In this document: positions 29,075-58,567 of the stretch, piece by piece | How the letters are laid out: the number at the start of each line of letters is the position of its first letter | How positions within the stretch are numbered: position 1 is the stretch's first letter | Assembly (NCBI RefSeq): GCF_964213995.1 | Contig: NC_135804.1 | Coordinates: 38,564,001-38,628,000, forward strand | Direction: 5' to 3' | Length of the DNA: 64,000 nt | From: Mustelus asterias | Taxonomy: Eukaryota | Notes under the pieces: generated by a model | Databases searched by the model: none | Seen by the model: only the letters and a program-made list of their open reading frames with translations | What the model was told of the DNA's origin: nothing | Translations under genes and position numbers: made by a program

Positions 29075-29853
29075 CTTTAACAGTGGAAACCAAAGACAGA
29101 GATTAAAGTGGTAACAGAAGGGAGTGTTAAACATAGATGCTAATCTAACTTTTCTCTTCAGATTCGACTGATGAGAACCTCCAACATTTTTTGTACTTTT
29201 ATTGCAGATTACCAACATTTGCAATGTTCAACGTTTGTGAAATGCAACGTCTGAATCATTTTCTAAAAGAAAGTGCGGAATGTGGGGAAATGGTTGATAG
29301 CGTGTGCGTCAAGTTAAAAATAAATAACCCGTCGTCCGATACCAGGCGGGTGCAACGGCGCTGATTTCGGCGGCTGGTGTTCGGGGAGTTTAAAAATCAA
29401 CAGAAGAGGCGACTCGGTCAAACGGGCATCTTCACAACATGGCCACCGAGTCCGGGCCCAATAAAAGTTCGGGGGTGTCGCCTTCGGTCACAGAGACCGA
29501 AATAAATCGGAGCGCGGCTCGAGGCGAGGCCGCCCACAGGCGCGGGGGTGAGGCGGAGAGGCCGGGCCCAGAGCGAGCTGCTCACAAAGCCTCCGCCTGG
29601 GGCAGCAGCGGCGGCGGCGGCCGGGCCCGGGCCTAGGCCTCGCCGCCATCCCCACCAAACAAAGGAACGTTTCCAGCCAAAATTAAACCCGGGGGCGGCG
29701 AGGCAAGACTGAAATAAAATGGAGGATCGGTGGCCGGGCCCGGGTGGCGGGCAGTGTTGTGGAAGCAGAAACCTCCCCTCCCCTCCCCTCACATCAAAAT
29801 GAAAGCCCCATTCACCTCCTGCTGCTGCTCGCTCTGCTCTGCAAGCTGCCAAC

Positions 29854-30048
29854 CTGACCCGGAAACACAAACCAACCGCTCGTCCTCACCCGGAAATACA
29901 AACCAGCCACGCACCACCGCCCTCCCCCCACTTTCTCCCCCTCCTCACCCGGAAATACAAACCAACCAACCCCCTCCTCACCCGGAAATACAAACTATCC
30001 TCACCCGGAAATACAAACCAACCGCCCCTCCTCACCCGGAAACAAGCC
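29854..30048. repeat. Six-copy promoter repeat CTCACCCGGAAATACAAACC
   Basis: Copies at ~29854, 29884, 29943, 29976, 29999, 30030. Confidence 0.9.
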
Positions 30049-30249
30049 AACATCTCTCTCCTCTCCACCCCACCCTCCCCGGATCCGCTTCCTTTCATCT
30101 CCACCAATCGGATCACTCCTTACATAGCCGCCGCCAACATCCAATCAGCCGCGGCTTTGGGAGAGAGAGTGGGTGGGGAGGAGCCGGAGCCGGAGCCGGA
30201 GGGTCAGAGGGCAGCCAGGGCCGGGGGGAGGGGGCTGCGGATTGTGATG

Positions 30250-30274
30250 ATGAACTCGCTGGAACAAGCTGAAG
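30250..30274 (+). CDS. CNEP1R1: CNEP1R1 exon 1 (MNSLEQAE; an extra in-frame ATG lies at 30247)
   Basis: ATG AAC TCG CTG GAA CAA GCT GAA G|gtaaat. Confidence 0.95.
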
Positions 30275-30379
30275 GTAAATGGTGGTGGTGGAAGGGGGGA
30301 TGGGTGTGCGCGCGCCCCGGAGCCGGTTACGCTCCACCGCAGCCTGTCAGATGGAGAATGTGGTTGATTTGTCTTGCAG

Positions 30380-30451
30380 ATCTCAAGGCTTTCGAGAGGA
30401 GGCTGACCGAGTACATCTCCTGCTTACAGCCGGCAACGGGACGGTGGCGAA
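30380..30451 (+). CDS. CNEP1R1: CNEP1R1 exon 2
   Basis: ttgcag|AT CTC AAG GCT TTC GAG...TGG CGA A|gtgagt; [24 protein letters not shown]. Confidence 0.96.
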
Positions 30452-33400
30452 GTGAGTATCCACAGGGTGTGTGTGTGTCCACCCTCAGTGAGTATCCACA
30501 GGGTGTGTGTGTGTGTCCACCCTCAGTGAGTATCCACAGGGTGTGTGTGTGTCCACCCTCAGTGAGTATCCACAGGGTGTGTGTGTGTGTGTCCACCCTC
30601 AGTGAGTATCCACAGGGTGTGTGTGTGTCCACCCTCAGTGAGTATCCACAGGGTGTGTGTGTGTCCACCCTCAGTGAGTATCCACAGGGTGTGTGTGTGT
30701 GTCCACCCTCAGTGAGTATCCACAGGGTGTGTGTGTGTCCACCCTCAGTGAGTATCCACAGGGTGTGTGTGTGTCCACCCTCAGTGAGTATCCACAGGGG
30801 GTGTGTGTGTGTCCACCCTCAGTGAGTATCCACAGGGTGTGTGTGTGTCCACCCTCAGTGAGTATCCACAGGGTGTGTGTGTGTCCACCCTCAGTGAGTA
30901 TCCACAGGGTGTGTGTGTGTCCGCCCTCAGTGAGTATCCACAGGGTGTGTGTGTGTGTGTGTGTGTCCATCCTCAGTGAGTATCCACAGGGTGTGTGTGT
31001 GTGTGTCCATCCTCAGTGAGTATCCACAGGGTGTGTGTGTGTGTGTCCCCTCAGTGAGTATCCACAGGGTGTGTGTGTGTGTGTCCCCTCAGTGAGTATC
31101 CACAGGGTGTGTGCGTGTGTGTCCACCCTCAGTGAGTATCCACAGGGTGTGTATGTGTGTCCACCCTCAGTGAGTATCCACAGGGTATTTGTGCGTGTCC
31201 ATCCTCAGTGAGTATCCACAGGGTGTGTATGTGTGTAAACCCTCAGTGAGTATCCACAGGGTGTGTGTGTGTCCCCTCAGTGAGTATCCACAGGGTGTGT
31301 GTGTGTCCCCTCAGTGAGTATCCACAGGGTGTGTGCGTGTGTCCACCCTCAGTGAGTATCCACAGGGTGTGTGTGTGTGTCCACCCTCAGTGAGTATCCA
31401 CAGGGTGTGTGTGTGTGTCCACCCTCAATGAGTATCCACAGGGTGTGTGTGTGTGTGTCCACCCTCAGTGAGTATCCACAGGGTGTGTGTGTGTGTCCAT
31501 CCTCAGTGAGTATCCACAGGGTGTGTGTGTGTGTGTCCCCTCAGTGAGTATCCACAGGGTGTGTGTGTGTGTGTCCCCTCAGTGAGTATCCACAGGGTGT
31601 GTGCGTGTGTGTCCACCCTCAGTGAGTATCCACAGGGTGTGTATGTGTGTCCACCCTCAGTGAGTATCCACAGGGTATTTGTGCGTGTCCATCCTCAGTG
31701 AGTATCCACAGGGTGTGTATGTGTGTAAACCCTCAGTGAGTATCCACAGGGTGTGTGCGTGTGTCCACCCTCAGTGAGTATCCACAGGGTGTGTGTGTGT
31801 GTCCACCCTCAATGAGTATCCACAGGGTGTGTGTGTGTGTGTCCACCCTCAGTGAGTATCCACAGGGTGTGTGTGTGTGTCCATCCTCAGTGAGTATCCA
31901 CAGGGTGTGTGTGTGTGTGTCCCCTCAGTGAGTATCCACAGGGTGTGTGTGTGTCCCCTCAGTGAGTATCCACAGGGTGTGTGTGTGTGTGTCCACCCTC
32001 AGTGAGTATCCACAGGGTGTGTGTGTGCGTGTCCACCCTCAGTGAGTATCCACAGGGTGTGCGTGTGTGTCCCCTCAGTCAGTATCCACAGGGTATGTGT
32101 GTGTCCACCCTCAGTGACTATCCACAGGGTATTTGTGTGTGTCCACCCTCAGTGAGTATCCACAGGGTGTGTGTGTGTGTCCACCCTCAGTGAGTATCCA
32201 CAGGGTGTGTGTGTGTGTCCACCCTCAATGAGTATCCACAGGGTGTGTGTGTGTGTGTCCACCCTCAGTGAGTATCCACAGGGTGTGTGTGTGCGTGTCC
32301 ACCCTCAGTGAGTATCCACAGGGTGTGCGTGTGTGTCCCCTCAGTCAGTATCCACAGGGTATGTGTGTGTCCACCCTCAGTGACTATCCACAGGGTATTT
32401 ATGCGTGTCCATCCTCAGTGAGTATCCACAGGGTGTGTGCGTGTCCACCCTCAGTGACTATCCACAGGGTATTTGTGTGTGTCCACCCTCAGTGAGTATC
32501 CACAGGGTGTGTGTGTGTGTCCACCCTCAGTGAGTATCCACAGGGTGTGTGTGTGTGTCCACCCTCAATGAGTATCCACAGGGTGTGTGTGTGTGTGTCC
32601 ACCCTCAGTGAGTATCCACAGGGTGTGTGTGTGCGTGTCCACCCTCAGTGAGTATCCACAGGGTGTGCGTGTGTGTCCCCTCAGTCAGTATCCACAGGGT
32701 ATGTGTGTGTCCACCCTCAGTGACTATCCACAGGGTATTTATGCGTGTCCATCCTCAGTGAGTATCCACAGGGTGTGTGCGTGTCCATCCTCAGTGAGTA
32801 TCCACAGGGTGTGTATGTGTGTCCACCCTCAGTGAGTATCCACAGGGTGTGCGTGTGTCCACCCTCAGTGAGTATCCACAGGGTGTGCGTGTGTCCACCC
32901 TCAGTGAGTATCCACAGAGTGTGTGTGTCCATCCTCAGTGAGTATCCACAGGGTGTGTGTGTGTGTCCACCCTCAGTGAGTATCCACAGGGTGTGTGTGT
33001 GTGTGTGTCCACCCTCAGTGAGTATCCACAGGGTATTTGTGCGTGTCCACCCTCAGTGAGTATCCACAAGGTATTTGTGCGTGTCCATCCTCAGTGAGTA
33101 TCCACAGGGTGTGTGTGTGTCCACCCTCAGTGAGTATCCACAGGGTGTGTGTGCGTGTCCCCCCTCAGAGAGTATCCACAGGGTGTGCGCGTGTCCCCCC
33201 TCAGTGAGTATCGACAGGGTGTGTGTGTGTCCACCCTCAGTGAGTATCCACAGGGTGTGTGTGCGTGTCCCCCCTCAGAGAGTATCCACAGGGTGTGTGC
33301 GTGTCCCCCCTCAGTGAGTATCCACAGGGTGTGTGTGTGTCCATCCTCAGTGAGTATCCACAGGGTGTGTGTGTGTGTCCACCCTCAGTGAGTATCCACA

Positions 33401-34562
33401 GGGTATTTGTGCGTGTCCACCCTCAGTGAGTATCCACAGGGTATGTGTGTGTCCACCCTCAGTGAGTATCCACAGGGTATTTGTGCGTGTCCATCCTCAG
33501 TGAGTATCCACAGGGTGTGTGTGCGTGTCCACCCTCAGTGAGTATCCACAGGGTGTGTGTGCGTGTCCCCCCTCAGAGAGTATCCACAGGGTGTGTGCGT
33601 GTCCCCCCTCAGTGAGTATCGACAGGGTGTGTGTGTGTCCACCCTCAGTGAGTATCCACAGGGTGTGTGTGCGTGTCCCCCCTCAGAGAGTATCCACAGG
33701 GTGTGTGCGTGTCCCCCCTCAGTGAGTATCCACAGGGTGTGTGTGTGTCCATCCTCAGTGAGTATCCACAGGGTGTGTGTGTGTGTCCACCCTCAGTGAG
33801 TATCCACAGGGTATTTGTGCGTGTCCACCCTCAGTGAGTATCCACAGGGTATGTGTGTGTCCACCCTCAGTGAGTATCCACAGGGTATTTGTGCGTGTCC
33901 ATCCTCAGTGAGTATCCACAGGGTGTGTGTGCGTGTCCACCCTCAGTGAGTATCCACAGGGTGTGTGTGCGTGTCCCCCCTCAGAGAGTATCCACAGGGT
34001 GTGTGCGTGTCCCCCCTCAGTGAGTATCGACAGGGTGTGTGTGTGTCCACCCTCAGTGAGTATCCACAGGGTGTGTGTGCGTGTCCCCCCTCAGAGAGTA
34101 TCCACAGGGTGTGTGCGTGTCCCCCCTCAGTGAGTATCCACAGGGTGTGTGTGTGTCCATCCTCAGTGAGTATCCACAGGGTGTGTGTGTGTGTCCACCC
34201 TCAGTGAGTATCCACAGGGTATTTGTGCGTGTCCACCCTCAGTGAGTATCCACAGGGTATGTGTGTGTCCACCCTCAGTGAGTATCCACAGGGTATTTGT
34301 GCGTGTCCATCCTCAGTGAGTATCCACAGGGTGTGTGTGCGTGTCCACCCTCAGTGAGTATCCACAGGGTGTGTATGTGTCCCCTCAGTGAGTATCCACA
34401 GGGTGTGTGTGTGTGTCCCCTCAGTGAGTATCCACAGGGTGTGTGTGTGTGTCCCCTCAGTGAGTATCCACAGGGTGTGTGCGTGTGTCCACCCTCAGTG
34501 AGTATCCACAGGGTGTGTGTGTCCCCTCAGTGAGTATCCACAGGGTGTGTGCGTGTCCACCC
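30452..34562 (+). repeat. Compound minisatellite, unit GTGAGTATCCACAGG(GT)nCCACCCTCA (~34-46 bp, roughly 110 copies)
   Basis: Directly visible tandem array starting exactly at the exon-2 donor; variable (GT)n; higher-order periodicities. Confidence 0.98.
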
Positions 34563-35060
34563 TTTTTGATTTCATTTATTATTGTCACATGTATTATCCT
34601 ACAGTGAAAAGTCTTGTTTCTTGCGTGCTATACAGACAAAGCATACCGTTCATAGAGAAGGAAAGGAGAGGGGGCAGAATGTAGTGTTACAGTCATTGGG
34701 TGTAGAGAAAGATAAACGTAATGTGAGGTAGGTCCGTTCAAAAGTCTGACAGCAGCAGGGGAGAAGCTGTTCTTGAGTCGGTTGGTACGTGACCTCAGAT
34801 GTATCTTTTTCCCAACGGAAGAAGGTGGAAGAGAGAATGTCCGGGGTGCGTGGGGTCCTTAATTGTGCTTGGCTGCTTTGCCAAGGCAGCAGGAAGCGTA
34901 GACAGAGTCAATGGATGGGAGGCTGGTTTGCGTGATGGATTGGGCTACATTCACGACCTTTTGTAGTTTCTTGCAGTCTTGGGCAGAGCAGGAGCCATAC
35001 CAAGCTGTGATACAACCAGAAATAATGCTTTCTGTGGTGCATCTGTAAAAGTTGGTGAGA
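34563..35060 (-). mobile_element. Rex1/Babar-like LINE 3' fragment interrupting the minisatellite
   Basis: FYRCTTESIISGCITAWYGSCSAQD (ORF 34859..35089); same 3' end as 59078-59420. Confidence 0.8.
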
Positions 35061-37260
35061 TACACACATACCCTGAGACACATACTCACCCTCGGTGAGT
35101 ATCCAGGATGTGTGTGTCCCTCCTCGGTGAGTATCCAGGGTGTGTATGTGTCCGTTCTCGGTGAAAGGAGAGAGGGGGGTGGGGGTGTAATGCTGTAAAT
35201 AGCAATGGAGGCAGTTGTTTAGAGTTGCACTTCTAGATGCAGTTTTAGTGGTGGGTACATATACTCCAGAGTAGTAGTATCAAGTGGTCCATTAAACATT
35301 CATACAAAAGGAAGGTATTGTGGGTGCTGGAAACCTGACGTAAAAACAGAAAATGCTGTAAAACTGAAATGGAAACAAAAAATTCTGAGAATCTGAACTA
35401 AAAACAAGATTATGTACATCTGAAATAAAAACAAAAGACGTTGCAAATCTGCAATGCAAACAGAAAATGCTGCAAATCTGACATAAAAACAAAAATGGCT
35501 GGTCCACCCTGAAGCGTTAACTCTTCTATTTTCACAAATGCTACCAGATCTGCAGATTGTTTTGAGTATTTTTTATTTTTGTTCTCATTAAATGTGCTGC
35601 AGATTGCTTTATCCCTGGTGAAATGTGATGGATTGAAATAATCGCTGTCATCACATTGGTTCAGTACAGCACCTTGCTTTTCTTCATGTATAGCAACTGA
35701 AATAACATGCTATTAATGCAGCAAAAAAAATCACTAGGATTTTCCAATCCTAGCTTTGAGCATCTATGTTGTACAGGACACTGTCTACATACTCGGGCAT
35801 TAAGAAGTCAACCTCAAAGGTTTCCTCTTTCCACCACCAGCCTACAAACAAATTAAAGAACTTTTATAGTTGCTAAGATGTTCAATGGCTGGAAGGATTC
35901 TCATTTCAGTATTTAAGGTACAAGCAAGTGTTTAGTGTCTTATGGATAATCAATATGAGCCGTACAGACCAGGAACACCAAAGGTTCAATCCCCTGAGCT
36001 TCATTGTCCTTCATTATGGATGGGAAAAATCAGCTAGGATTTCTACTCCTTAGCAATGTTCAGTGACAATTGCAAAATTATAATGTTGTGAACTTCACAT
36101 AGGGCAGAATTAGGTTTCACTGCAATTTTCCGCTGTCCTGAAGTGCTTGAAAAGCCTGCTTTTGATCAAAAAATCCTTCCAAGATTGATTAATCAATCAT
36201 GGCCACTGGGGCAGAATAACAAGTTTCGGCAGTGCCGTGAGACTCAACCCTAGCAAGAATTGAAACCATCGTGAGATCAGGCTGTCAGAAATAATTTAGA
36301 AGAGAAATTGCTTGAAGCAACCCACAAAATCTTATCAATCACCTTCTGAATCTGTGAATTGCCACTCTTTGAAGAACTCAGCCAGGTTTGTAATATTGGG
36401 AGGGTGGTCAGGGCAACCAGTGTGTTCAATGCACAATGATGATATACTTATTGCAACTATGGGTGGGATTTTCCAGCCCCACCCACCACCAAGAGCACCA
36501 GGTCCTGCTGAAAATGAGTGGGCTATGGCTGGCTCATGGCAGGTACTCCCACAGAGGGGCTGAAAAATTTTGGCCTCTGTCTTCCACAGAGAAGCATGCT
36601 CCAACAAGGAGTTTATTAATAATACACAGTATTAAGGGCCTGCCAAATACATTTTCATTATGTGGTGCCGAGCAGTATTGTAGTTAGTTATTGTGTTTCA
36701 ATTGTGCTCAACTCAAAAGTAAACTTCATATCTGTCCATGCATTGTATAAACCAAAACTTGATCTTAATGTGCAAGATATTTCAGTTAGCCTTGTTCAAG
36801 GGCATACAATACACCTCTGTACTATTGGGTATGCATTAGAAATAATATGGCTGGCCTACTGTGTGCTTCAAGCTAGTTAAAATTCCAGGATGGCAGTTTG
36901 TGTAGCTCAGGTTAAAAACTATTAATCTGGGTCATGAAAAAGTAATTACACAGATGCAAGAACTAAGCAGAATTATTTAAAATATAGATATAATTTTCTA
37001 CTTTTTGCTTGAAATAAATATCTTTTGATATGCTTATTGATGAACTTGTGCCATTGTACTCTGACGATTCATAGCACCTTGGACCTGTTCTTCACAAAAA
37101 CAACTCTTTGCCAGAAAGCAGCCTCAGAAACCATATTTTAAATGATTCGAATGGTCGATTTTTTTTTTATTCGTCCCTGGCCTGGCCACAATTTATGGCA
37201 TCCCTAATTGTCCTTGAGAAGTAGTGGTGAGCTGCCGTCTTGAACTGCTGCAGTCCATTC

Positions 37261-37610: not shown

Positions 37611-37684
37611 TGATTCTCATTGTTGTTTCGGTATGTACTGCCACAGGTGCCTGGAACTGGTTAATAGATCCTGAAACGCAAAAG
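37611..37684 (+). CDS. CNEP1R1: CNEP1R1 exon 3
   Basis: ttgcag|TG ATT CTC...CAA AAG|gtaatt; [25 protein letters not shown]. Confidence 0.96.
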
Positions 37685-39838: not shown

Positions 39839-39948
39839 GTATCTTTTTTCACATCGCTATGGAATCATCCATTCTTCACCATCAGCTGTATAACTCTTAT
39901 TGGTTTATTCTTTGCTGGAATACATAAAAGAGTGGTTGCACCATCAAT
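39839..39948 (+). CDS. CNEP1R1: CNEP1R1 exon 4
   Basis: ttttag|GTA TCT...TCA AT|gtatcctttc; [36 protein letters not shown]. Confidence 0.96.
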
Positions 39949-41388
39949 GTATCCTTTCTTGGTATGTCACGGACAGAATTTATAGGTTTTCTTTTACTAC
40001 CTGTGATCAATATGTTTCTGTAAGAGGTATATGTTGTTTTACCCTCAGTGTGTCCCAATTCAATAACTCCAGCAGCAAGCTTTTTGTAAATTACAAATGA
40101 AGAAATCTATTTATTATGAAACACCTACCCCAAATTTAGCTCAATGTTTCACTCACTCGTCTCTCTCACAGGTGAATGTCCTGTACTGTTTCAGCTAATA
40201 ATTATCTCAGTCTCTTCGGTGGCAGGCCGGTAAATTTCTAGATGCAATTGATGCCTTAAAGTTGAATTGAAAATCTTGTAAAGTGAGTGATTCTCAACAG
40301 ACTGTGAGTTTTCTCGTCAAATTTCCATGAAACTGGTTCTCGGGTTCATTTTAACTGGAACAGGTTGGGGAATTACCTCAGCTACTTGAGTGACTTGCAG
40401 CTAGTTCAATGGCTTTTGGTGGAACTCCGTCTGCAAGCAGCTTGCAGGTTTTACAAGTAGATAAAATTTTTCCCTCGTCATGTACTTTTGACAAGTTCGA
40501 AGTCCTTTTACCAAATAATGGGGAATGCGTATGTTGATTTCAATCATCTAGTGTTGATTGACAGTTGAGATTTATCCAGCCTAGTTTGGATGGGAGAAAA
40601 CAGTCATAATACAATGGAAGGTTGATGGGACCTATTCACATCTGTCTTACACACCTGGAGCTTTGAAGTCTCCATTTATCCAGAATGAAACAGAAAGTGA
40701 GGTTCTTTCCAAAGTCCTTTTGTGTTGATCCATTCTTAAAGGATTGTGTGAATACTCTCGGTGTCTGTGAATGTCCAGGGTAAATTAGGTATTTCCTTGA
40801 GATTTAAGACTGTCTGAGGCTCAGATGCAAGAGGTCACATGATTTGCAGCAGCCATTTTAATACTCTGTCTAGTTTTTAAAAGTATTGACTGAAAATTCA
40901 TCATCTACTGTGACATGACATGGTGTCTTTCAGATTGCTGTCAACTTGATTTGCAGAATTAGATCATTGCTGTGATGCCTTTTCAAATGCTGACTATGTA
41001 TTTTTAAATTAACTTAGTTATCATCTGCTGAGATGAGTCCTGTCCTCACTCAGTGCAGTCTTCACTCACCCCAGTCCAACGCCGGCATCTCCACATCTTC
41101 ACTCAGTGCACCAATGCTTTGGAATGTTTGGTCTATTATTTACTGTTAAACTGAAAATTACATGTGTTTAACCAGTAGAGAAACTATTAACAGCCAACAT
41201 TCTTTAATTTTATAAAAGTTGTACAGTACAGTTTCCTTCACTGCATTCTGTTGAGTGATTTGTCATTCTTGTAGAGTTAATGAATCTATAATTCCTTATG
41301 CAATCTCTCCCATAAGAACAGAGCCAATATTACATAACTCCAATTTTAATTGATGAAAAATTGATTTTCCTTAACCTGTTGTTTGTAG
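39949..41388 (+). other. CNEP1R1: U12-type (minor spliceosome) GT-AG intron 4 of CNEP1R1
   Basis: 5'SS GTATCCTTT; branch point TTCCTTAAC at 41367-41375, 13 nt before the exon. Confidence 0.92.
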
Positions 41389-41443
41389 TATAGCTGCAAG
41401 ATGTCGAACTGTTTTGGCAGAGTACAACATGTCTTGTGATGAT
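41389..41443 (+). CDS. CNEP1R1: CNEP1R1 exon 5
   Basis: tgtag|T ATA GCT GCA AGA...GAT GAT|gtaagt; IAARCRTVLAEYNMSCDD. Confidence 0.96.
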
Positions 41444-50554: not shown

Positions 50555-50596
50555 ACTGGAAAACTAATATTAAAGCCCAGGCCCCATGTCCAATGA
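50555..50596 (+). CDS. CNEP1R1: CNEP1R1 exon 6 (terminal)
   Basis: ttctag|ACT GGA AAA CTA ATA TTA AAG CCC AGG CCC CAT GTC CAA TGA; TGKLILKPRPHVQ*. Confidence 0.96.
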   Translation, partial: TGKLILKPRPHVQ

Positions 50597-57399: not shown

Positions 57400-57941
57400 T
57401 CAGTGGCCAATCCAGCCACAGGAGGAACCGGCACAGTGTTTAACGGTGGGATTGGGAATCTTCTCGCTGTCACATCACATCCGGATCGTGTTAACTCAGC
57501 GGAATGGTATTTCCCCCTCTCCTAACAAGGGCAGTAAGAGTCCCCCACTCAGTGAGGGCGCAGAGCCCCCAACTCAGTGAGGGTCCCCACAGTGAGTTTG
57601 CAGGCTCCCCTCTCGGTGAGGGTGCAGAGTCTGCCCTCTCAGACAGGTTACTCTCTGTGTTGCATTTTGAATATTCGCACGGTGTCAGCATGATAAACAT
57701 GAAGCCGGGACCAGCTTCCCCCTGCCTCTGCCCCTCATTCTCTGCCTGTCCCTCAATCACTCCCTCAGCCCCTCACCTCCCACTCTCACCCTCTCCCTCA
57801 CTCACCCTCTCCCACTCTCAGTATCTCCTCCCCATTCATTCTGTCTCCTCCCCGGTTGTGACGTTCCTGTGATTCCTGGAGCTGCGGCACAGAGACCGAG
57901 TCCACATGGTGTAGCCCAGCCCGGCCGCCCCGTGTCTGCCT
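57400..57941 (+). promoter_or_regulatory. Probable HEATR3 promoter
   Basis: GC/CpG enrichment; TGACG (CRE-half) next to TTCC at ~57859; upstream of first coding exon. Confidence 0.5.
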
Positions 57942-58567
57942 CCCGCTGCCCAGTCTCTCCCTTCCCGCTGCCCAGTCTCTCCCTCCCCGCTGCCCAGTCT
58001 CTCCCTCCCCGCTGCCCAGTCTCTCCCTCCCCGCTGCCCAGTCTCTCCCTCCCCGCTGCCCAGTCTCTCCCTCCCCGCTGCCCAGTCTCTCCCTCCCCGC
58101 TGCCCAGTCTCTCCCTCCCCGCTGCCCAGTCTCTCCCTCCCCGCTGCCCAGTCTCTCCCTCCCCGCTGCCCAGTCTCTCCCTCCCCGCTGCCCAGTCTCT
58201 CCCTCCCCGCTGCCCAGTCTCTCCCTCCCCGCTGCCCAGTCTCTCCCTCCCCGCTGCCCAGTCTCTCTCCCCCCGCTGCCCAGTCTCTCCCTCCCCGCTG
58301 CCCAGTCTCTCTTCCCCCCGCTGCCCAGTCTCTCCCTCCCCGCTGCCCAGTCTCTCCCTCCCCGCTGCCCAGTCTCTCTCCCCCCGCTGCCCAGTCTCTC
58401 CCTCCCCGCTGCCCAGTCTCTCTCCCCCCGCTGCCCAGTCTCTCTTCCCCCCGCTGCCCAGTCTCTCTTCCCCCCGCTGCCCAGTCTCTCTTCCCCCCGC
58501 TGCCCAGTCTCTCTTCCCCCCGCTGCCCAGTCTCTCCCTCCCCGCTGCCCAGTCTCTCTCTGCCCAG
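57942..58567 (+). repeat. 22-23 bp minisatellite (CCCGCTGCCCAGTCTCTCCCTC)n, ~28 copies, immediately 5' of the HEATR3 ATG
   Basis: Directly visible tandem array ending 5 nt before ATG 58573. Confidence 0.97.

Follow-up and report, generated by a model that had tools for sequence, protein, structure and literature searches.

The gene CNEP1R1 of the shark Mustelus asterias carries, from the last base of exon 2 onwards, a minisatellite whose units repeat the splice donor of that exon. This raises the questions of how such an array arose and how an intron that opens with so many near-equal donors is spliced. We analysed the whole stretch of 64,000 nucleotides in which the array lies (contig NC_135804.1, forward strand; hereafter the window), and the positions below are those of the window (Table 1).

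The CNEP1R1 locus and its donor array

The gene was recognized from its protein. The reading of exon 2 matches PF09771, nuclear envelope phosphatase-regulatory subunit 1, and six exons join into an open frame of 126 aa. The promoter region has a GC content of 0.55-0.71 and a CpG o/e of 0.56-1.33 in 200-bp windows starting from 29301 to 30301, and the CpG count drops to 0 in such windows inside the array. The contig at exon 3, which we guess to derive from RNA, comes from a more distant relative (organism C) that shows no unit behind the donor. Two other contigs (X3 and X4) run unspliced through intron 1 and are DNA-like, and a third (X23) contains repeats only. Among the contigs listed for the locus, none was RNA from a species with the array.

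Table 1. Features of the CNEP1R1 locus in the window; a slash marks an exon-intron boundary.
Feature	Position	Strand	Basis or remark
CpG-rich promoter region of CNEP1R1, containing exons 1 and 2 and the start of intron 2	29301..30500		GC and CpG o/e
CNEP1R1 exon 1, coding part	30247..30274	+	ATG ATG ... AAG/GT
CNEP1R1 exon 2, 72 nt, encoding most of the CTDNEP1-binding helix	30380..30451	+	Match to PDB 8UJL; available text of PMC11145253
Authentic intron-2 donor GAA/GTGAGTAT, probable seed of the array	30449..30459	+	Organism C matches through GTGAGT to 30457; A/GTRAGT in bony-fish read-through models
Minisatellite, 110 units	30451..34563	+	92 intact TCA/GTGAGT copies, each followed by GGG and a (TG)n tract
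Second donor (cut between 30487 and 30488)	30485..30495	+	+36 nt, in frame
Higher-order repeat, 11-unit block of 408 bp, about 3 copies	33203..34353	+	20 consecutive identical units at lag 11
High-copy interspersed repeat between array and relic	34565..35060		9775 candidates; at least 39 other places at 91-93% identity
Inverted, altered single unit at the insertion junction	35060..35093	-	Local alignment to array units
Relic: two older units with TCG/GTGAGT donors, then a final partial GTGA	35095..35160	+	76-85% alike to array units
CNEP1R1 exon 3, 74 nt	37611..37684	+	Contig of organism C, guessed to be RNA, aligns from exactly 37611
CNEP1R1 exon 4	39839..39948	+	
CNEP1R1 exon 5	41389..41443	+	
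CNEP1R1 exon 6, coding part to stop	50555..50596	+	

TRF reports the array with a period of 38 and 110.0 copies, and a unit-by-unit parse also gives 110 units, of 32-46 bp each and of 39 types; the array makes up 57% of CNEP1R1 intron 2. The first-pass annotation had let it begin at the first base of the intron, but TRF places its start (30451) on the final base of that exon (A/GTGAGT) in exon 2, that is, exon position -1 and not intron +1. The first monomer accordingly spans the exon-intron boundary, as it does in F7, CBS, IFI6 and ABCA7 in human. The copies of the 408-bp block in the distal part probably originated by recent unequal exchange.

Over the 110 units, the donor hexamer reads GTGAGT in 93, GAGAGT in 6, ATGAGT in 4, GTGACT in 4 and GTCAGT in 3. 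The 93 comprise the authentic GAA/GTGAGT and 92 copies of the form TCA/GTGAGT, and the hexamer is damaged in 17 units. GTGAGT is thus kept in 92 of the 109 downstream units, with -3 and -2 unlike those of the real donor, and GAGTATCCA has 102 matches compared with 0.41 expected by chance. The earlier count of about 110 tandem U1 sites is therefore correct for the units, and falls to 92 for the intact copies. It had also been claimed that real donor and copies are of similar predicted strength, and this agrees with the predicted U1 duplex energy of -7.6 kcal/mol for both, computed with what we take to be the U1 motif; the real donor has one more match to the consensus, the A at -2. Splicing at the second donor (30488) would add 12 residues in frame and splicing at the third (30526, +74) would shift the frame, both as first annotated. 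Among the 92 copies 28 are in frame, and a premature stop is avoided by only four (30488, 30602, 30638 and 30674). There is no signal of donor erosion by selection: four kinds of donor-damaging variant, compared by eye, stand beside a similar number of variants elsewhere in the unit.

Three further properties of the units were considered and rejected. Recursive-splicing (ratchet) sites would be expected to bear a long pyrimidine tract, which is missing around the CAG/TGAG (with the AG overlapping the donor G) and CAG/GGT that the units provide. U12-type donors were sought in the unit, which offers GTATCCAC without the TT. The copies are about three-fold less accessible in predicted RNA structure than the real donor, but shuffled-unit arrays are equally occluded: in 31 of 60, the value did not exceed the real one.

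Origin of the array at the exon-2 donor

All exact matches of the unit in the 3.68-Gb genome (64 of 64) fall inside this array. A dispersed satellite, a transposon-borne repeat and a genome-wide repeat family were rejected, as the unit is found at no other locus of the genome. The pattern of the two relic units has only two matches in the genome, at 35095 and 35127, both beyond the interspersed repeat, which is presumably a LINE-like 3' end. The relic closes with a partial GTGA, which would be expected if the first ~35 intron bases had been duplicated.

The array is shared with a close relative. Organism B, whose intron shows 31 differences over 1168 letters, has an array behind the same donor, and its contig spans from the promoter into the first unit. 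In organism C, exon 2 and GTGAGT match and no unit is present in the next 30 letters. A/GTRAGT also stands at this donor in read-through models of gar and other bony fishes. Because organism C has the donor without a following unit and the fishes have A/GTRAGT, the donor is old and the array younger, which supports the exon-2 donor as the seed of the array. The proposal in the first-pass annotation that the array was built from this donor is strengthened by these comparisons, by the restriction of the unit to one locus and by its decay into relic units. The words CGTTCT and AAAGGA occur both in the 30 letters behind the donor in organism C and at the end of the relic, a hint that the relic may mark the old intron start.

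We suggest that duplication of the start of intron 2, (TG)n tract included, gave rise to a few units, that insertion of the interspersed repeat cut off the distal two, and that the proximal units expanded by slippage and unequal exchange. The amplification itself would likely have come from the repeat instability seen at promoters of this genome. TRF analysis of 464 kb around the window yields four minisatellite loci, three of which lie at gene starts: the CNEP1R1 array, a 22-bp array before a HEATR3-like start codon, and an array with 34-bp units immediately upstream of the next CpG-island promoter, whose gene we assume from its N-terminus to be TENT4B. A promoter motif was then used on a wider scale, with 87 genomic sites and 0 control hits. 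Among the 70 sites examined (2 near-duplicates were skipped and 15 not fetched), 9 have a minisatellite within 1.5 kb, compared with 2 of 120 windows 50 kb away (P = 0.002, Fisher's test), where the control windows came from 40 stretches and were not GC-matched and some of the motif sites are CpG-poor. Given this promoter-proximal enrichment, such arrays are expected by-products in this genome.

Judged by eye, 5 of the 9 promoter minisatellites start on the putative donor of a first exon or a short distance downstream of it. In one of these nine loci (L183), the array opens precisely on an AGG/GTGAGT and has 154 donor-like hexamers over 4.5 kb; Mad3/BUB1 exons were found ~25 kb downstream on the same strand in a scan of 126 plus-strand frames of 324, and L183 is a putative second donor array at a BUB1-family gene. 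Two results speak against a special role for donors. Donor-like triplets are not enriched in tandem arrays genome-wide over reversed controls, with 3853 against 3286 and 4830 against 7405. Of 22 other donor-like arrays taken from the first matches listed on C1 and C2, none clearly begins at a coding exon end by eye, although the exons could be UTR exons.

Donor choice and the weight of other readings

We consider it likely, and hold the view with some confidence, that the array is a single-locus minisatellite of the exon-2 donor and ~35 intron bases, that it grew through promoter repeat instability, that the first donor is almost always used by virtue of its position and that the array is near neutral. 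As the copies do not surpass the real donor in predicted strength, the precedents of F7 and ABCA7 suggest that the first donor dominates at CNEP1R1 with a small in-frame leak to 30488, which would be the likeliest place for minor leakage; donor choice is here read from mammalian precedent. Exon definition across the 72-nt exon 2 and the 5'-to-3' order of co-transcriptional splicing would commit the first donor. A few per cent might leak to the second donor, which would place the 12 residues after the CTDNEP1-binding helix, and nearly all other donor choices would be removed by NMD. The insert is absent from all 12 top-scoring homologues, none of which is known to bear an array. Of 120 listed homologues (144 matches), 98 have 0-1 residues at the protein junction between exon 2 and exon 3, 4 read through a long piece of intron, and 18 could not be fitted to the junction pattern; since no array-bearing species is known in this set, the insertion-free junction argues only weakly against a +12 isoform.

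An assembly artefact, the alternative that had been named at first, would mean that the repeat was inflated or mis-joined. The exact length of the array does rest on the assembly. However, its 39 unit types stand in ordered higher-order blocks, the contig of organism B runs from the promoter into the first unit, and in two samples with the same species label (S2 and S3) the array contigs lie far above single-copy depth; in S2, a variant with 6 occurrences in the assembly has a depth of 54 compared with 7.6-13.7 for unique sequence. An artefact is thus extremely improbable. The first-pass annotation also held that the copies must be silenced or resolved by TDP-43 or CELF proteins on the (UG)n tracts, so that the copies would be live competitors and loss of TDP-43 would move splicing into the array. 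Each copy is visibly flanked by a UG tract on both sides and the real donor on its downstream side only, where a (TG)5 lies beside the splice site, comparable in type to the tract of CFTR, whose exon 9 provides the precedent for such silencing (PMC10078293). The longest tract reaches at least 6 repeats in 31 of the 110 units and at least 5 in 54. Tracts of (GT)n behind the units, as first described, are thus present, but many are short or interrupted, and those with fewer than 5 repeats (56 of 110 units) are mostly in the distal part of the array. Moreover, the real donor and the copies are followed by the same tract, and the BUB1-family array has no (UG)n. In the available account of F7, position is enough to keep identical downstream copies out of use and a cis silencer is unnecessary (PMC1557585), which suggests that silencing would not be required at CNEP1R1 either. 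We give this reading little credence.

The array had further been proposed as a rheostat tuned by its length. Acting through the array donors, such a rheostat is made less plausible by ABCA7, in which use of the second donor is about 2% whatever the length, while an indirect effect on a neighbouring exon is conceivable (PMC5954066, available text). In that case the first donor would be used, a longer array would lead to skipping of exon 3 or exon 2, and length would tune the amount of functional CNEP1R1, in the way that skipping of ABCA7 exon 19 grows with VNTR length. The array fills more than half of the intron, and both skipping events would have consequences: loss of exon 3 shifts the frame and puts a stop 76 nt upstream of the last junction, which is predicted to trigger NMD, and loss of exon 2 gives an in-frame product of 102 aa without most of the CTDNEP1-binding helix (conserved region 1 in the available text of PMC11145253). 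In S3, a contig of the pure 36-bp unit stands at ~47 times single-copy depth, whereas 31-mer multiplicity in the assembly averages 23; as contig depth is not copy number, this hints only weakly at length differences between alleles. However, monomer number from 1 to 12 has no effect in F7 (PMC1557585, available text), and exon 3 sits 3 kb past the array and does not adjoin it. We regard an ABCA7-like modifier of dose as unlikely.

A broader proposal, that the lineage has recurrent kb-scale donor-seeded arrays at housekeeping first introns (CNEP1R1 and the BUB1-family gene) and that CNEP1R1 allele length is a TDP-43-dependent heritable dial for skipping, appears to us likewise unlikely. If recurrence were true, 1 of 70 sampled promoter sites could mean a hundred or more genes; if the dial were true, length would shift either skipping of exon 3, which leads into NMD, or skipping of exon 2, with loss of the CTDNEP1-binding helix. 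A nuclear sponge for U1 snRNP or TDP-43 would draw on 92 U1-pairing sites and ~100 UG tracts per pre-mRNA, but this is one locus with a short-lived intron, thousands of similar motif triplets exist in other arrays of this genome, and both factors are very abundant; such a role is highly improbable.

Our best reading is that the array is likely a largely neutral promoter-proximal expansion. Several observations speak against neutrality. The array's copies outnumber those tested in F7 about tenfold, and it has (UG)n tracts in addition; in ABCA7, a longer repeat does increase skipping of the following exon (PMC5954066, available text); and retention of the array in two species could reflect selection. 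The relic donors are predicted to be stronger than the real donor (-11.3 kcal/mol), and perfect downstream sites won in F7; the relic lies 4.6 kb away.

Relation to known donor repeats

Our literature search, mainly of openly accessible papers, found no study in which a repeat affects the splicing of CNEP1R1 and none that describes donor arrays in sharks, and the comparisons below draw on the available parts of the cited papers. In human, CpG islands and the regions upstream of genes are enriched in VNTRs (PMC8096271). The CNEP1R1 array is likewise a single-locus array at a CpG-rich gene start, but most of those minisatellites exclude the donor itself. With respect to the tracts, CFTR exon 9 is silenced when TDP-43 binds a (TG)n repeat, one of the splicing-associated tandem repeats of human (PMC10078293); there the repeat lies at the 3' site and the effect is demonstrated, whereas the CNEP1R1 tracts lie behind 5' sites and may bind TDP-43. 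Short UG motifs near downstream 5' sites accompany TDP-43-dose-dependent skipping of constitutive exons (PMC11163724).

By its structure the array belongs to a known class, represented in human by F7, CBS, IFI6, LMNB2, PDGF and ABCA7. In ABCA7 intron 18, the unit of a 25-bp VNTR begins with the donor GT and alleles reach 9.7 kb (De Roeck et al. 2018, PMC5954066). Both arrays thus have units carrying a donor GT and extend over several kb. The second ABCA7 donor is used at 2 +/- 1%, independent of length, and skipping of the next exon (exon 19) rises with VNTR length (PMC5954066). Retention of one unit via the second donor gives a frameshift in ABCA7, as observed, and is predicted to stay in frame in CNEP1R1. 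Length polymorphism and exon 19 skipping are demonstrated in ABCA7, whereas polymorphism and skipping would be hypothetical at CNEP1R1. CNEP1R1 is a highly conserved regulator of lipid synthesis in the ER and nuclear envelope, and its array would count as a splicing VNTR if exon skipping depended on array length. The minisatellites of IFI6 (6-16) intron 2 and CBS intron 13 leak only to the two nearest copies, and those of LMNB2 and PDGF intron 4 use the first donor only (PMC1557585). All four have a repeated donor behind the authentic one, as in CNEP1R1, but are mammalian and have 10-25 copies compared with 92 intact ones here.

The closest comparison is with human F7 intron 7 (IVS7), where the donor recurs 5-9 times in a VNTR of 37 bp (Borensztajn et al. 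2006, PMC1557585). Splicing there takes the most upstream donor exclusively, without a cis silencer, and use of this donor was unchanged when downstream copies were strengthened to CV 91 or when 1-12 monomers were present; only downstream sites of perfect consensus competed, winning 70-90% of splicing (PMC1557585). F7 and CNEP1R1 share a first monomer that spans the boundary, a similar unit size and a donor reiterated down the intron. The F7 copies are identical from -3 to +6, whereas the CNEP1R1 units contain one exon base only, so that the A at -2 is lost, and the 5-9 copies of F7 contrast with 110 units bearing (UG)n. CNEP1R1 therefore offers a large natural case for 5' splice-site choice, with 92 near-equal competitors compared with at most 11 downstream monomers in F7, in which first-donor priority could be examined at this scale outside mammals.

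A second putative donor-seeded array

The array that begins in L183, a stretch elsewhere in the genome, starts on AGG/GTGAGT, ~200 bp downstream of a promoter motif. Downstream of the array, the same strand carries Mad3/BUB1 exons. GTGAAT is the hexamer in 127 of its 154 units, followed by GTAAGT (24) and GTGAGT (3). From the sequence, its origin is putatively donor-seeded, with AGG/GTGAGT as the predicted exon boundary. Promoter-proximal minisatellites are also found in four other stretches (L134, L140, L165 and L195), starting ~8-80 bp downstream of putative first-exon donors, and the exon at L195 resembles the N-terminus of LLGL1.

Repeats around CNEP1R1 and elsewhere

Positions of repeat features (L081, L082 and L096 are stretches from the 464 kb around the window)
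Feature	Position	Setting
Second putative donor-seeded array, 154 units, 4.5 kb	L183:2703 to L221:2868 (contig G000:C18:16826395-16830868)	
23-bp tandem pair with CCGGAA box	window 29975-30018	CNEP1R1 promoter
22-bp x 29 minisatellite, pyrimidine-rich	window 57920-58565	3' end 7 bp upstream of HEATR3-like start codon (58573)
34-bp G-rich array, ~4.6 kb	L081:8898 to L082:3524	immediately upstream of next gene's CpG-island promoter
Compound minisatellite, 5 kb	L096:2300-7490 (contig G000:C4:38416301-38421490)	very GC- and CpG-rich

The CCGGAA box, which is of ETS type, occurs in several dispersed copies within short repeats of the CNEP1R1 promoter (window 29850-30045). Every unit of the 22-bp minisatellite has a pyrimidine run closing in CAG. 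This array probably lies in the 5' UTR, and its units look like reiterated splice acceptors. The gene after the 34-bp array has its ATG at L082:3882 and is, to judge by its N-terminus, TENT4B. The compound minisatellite consists of several unit types, one after another, and no gene start is evident there.

Relic hairpin and intron 4 of CNEP1R1

Pairing between the inverted unit and the first relic donor gives a perfect 9-bp hairpin, ATACTCACC-CTC-GGTGAGTAT (window 35060-35103), which could hide this donor. The 5' arm of the hairpin is antisense to the donors of the CNEP1R1 array as well. Intron 4 (window 39949-41388), with the 5' site GTATCCTTT and a branch box TTCCTTAAC 13 nt upstream of the AG, looks U12-type when judged against the consensus.
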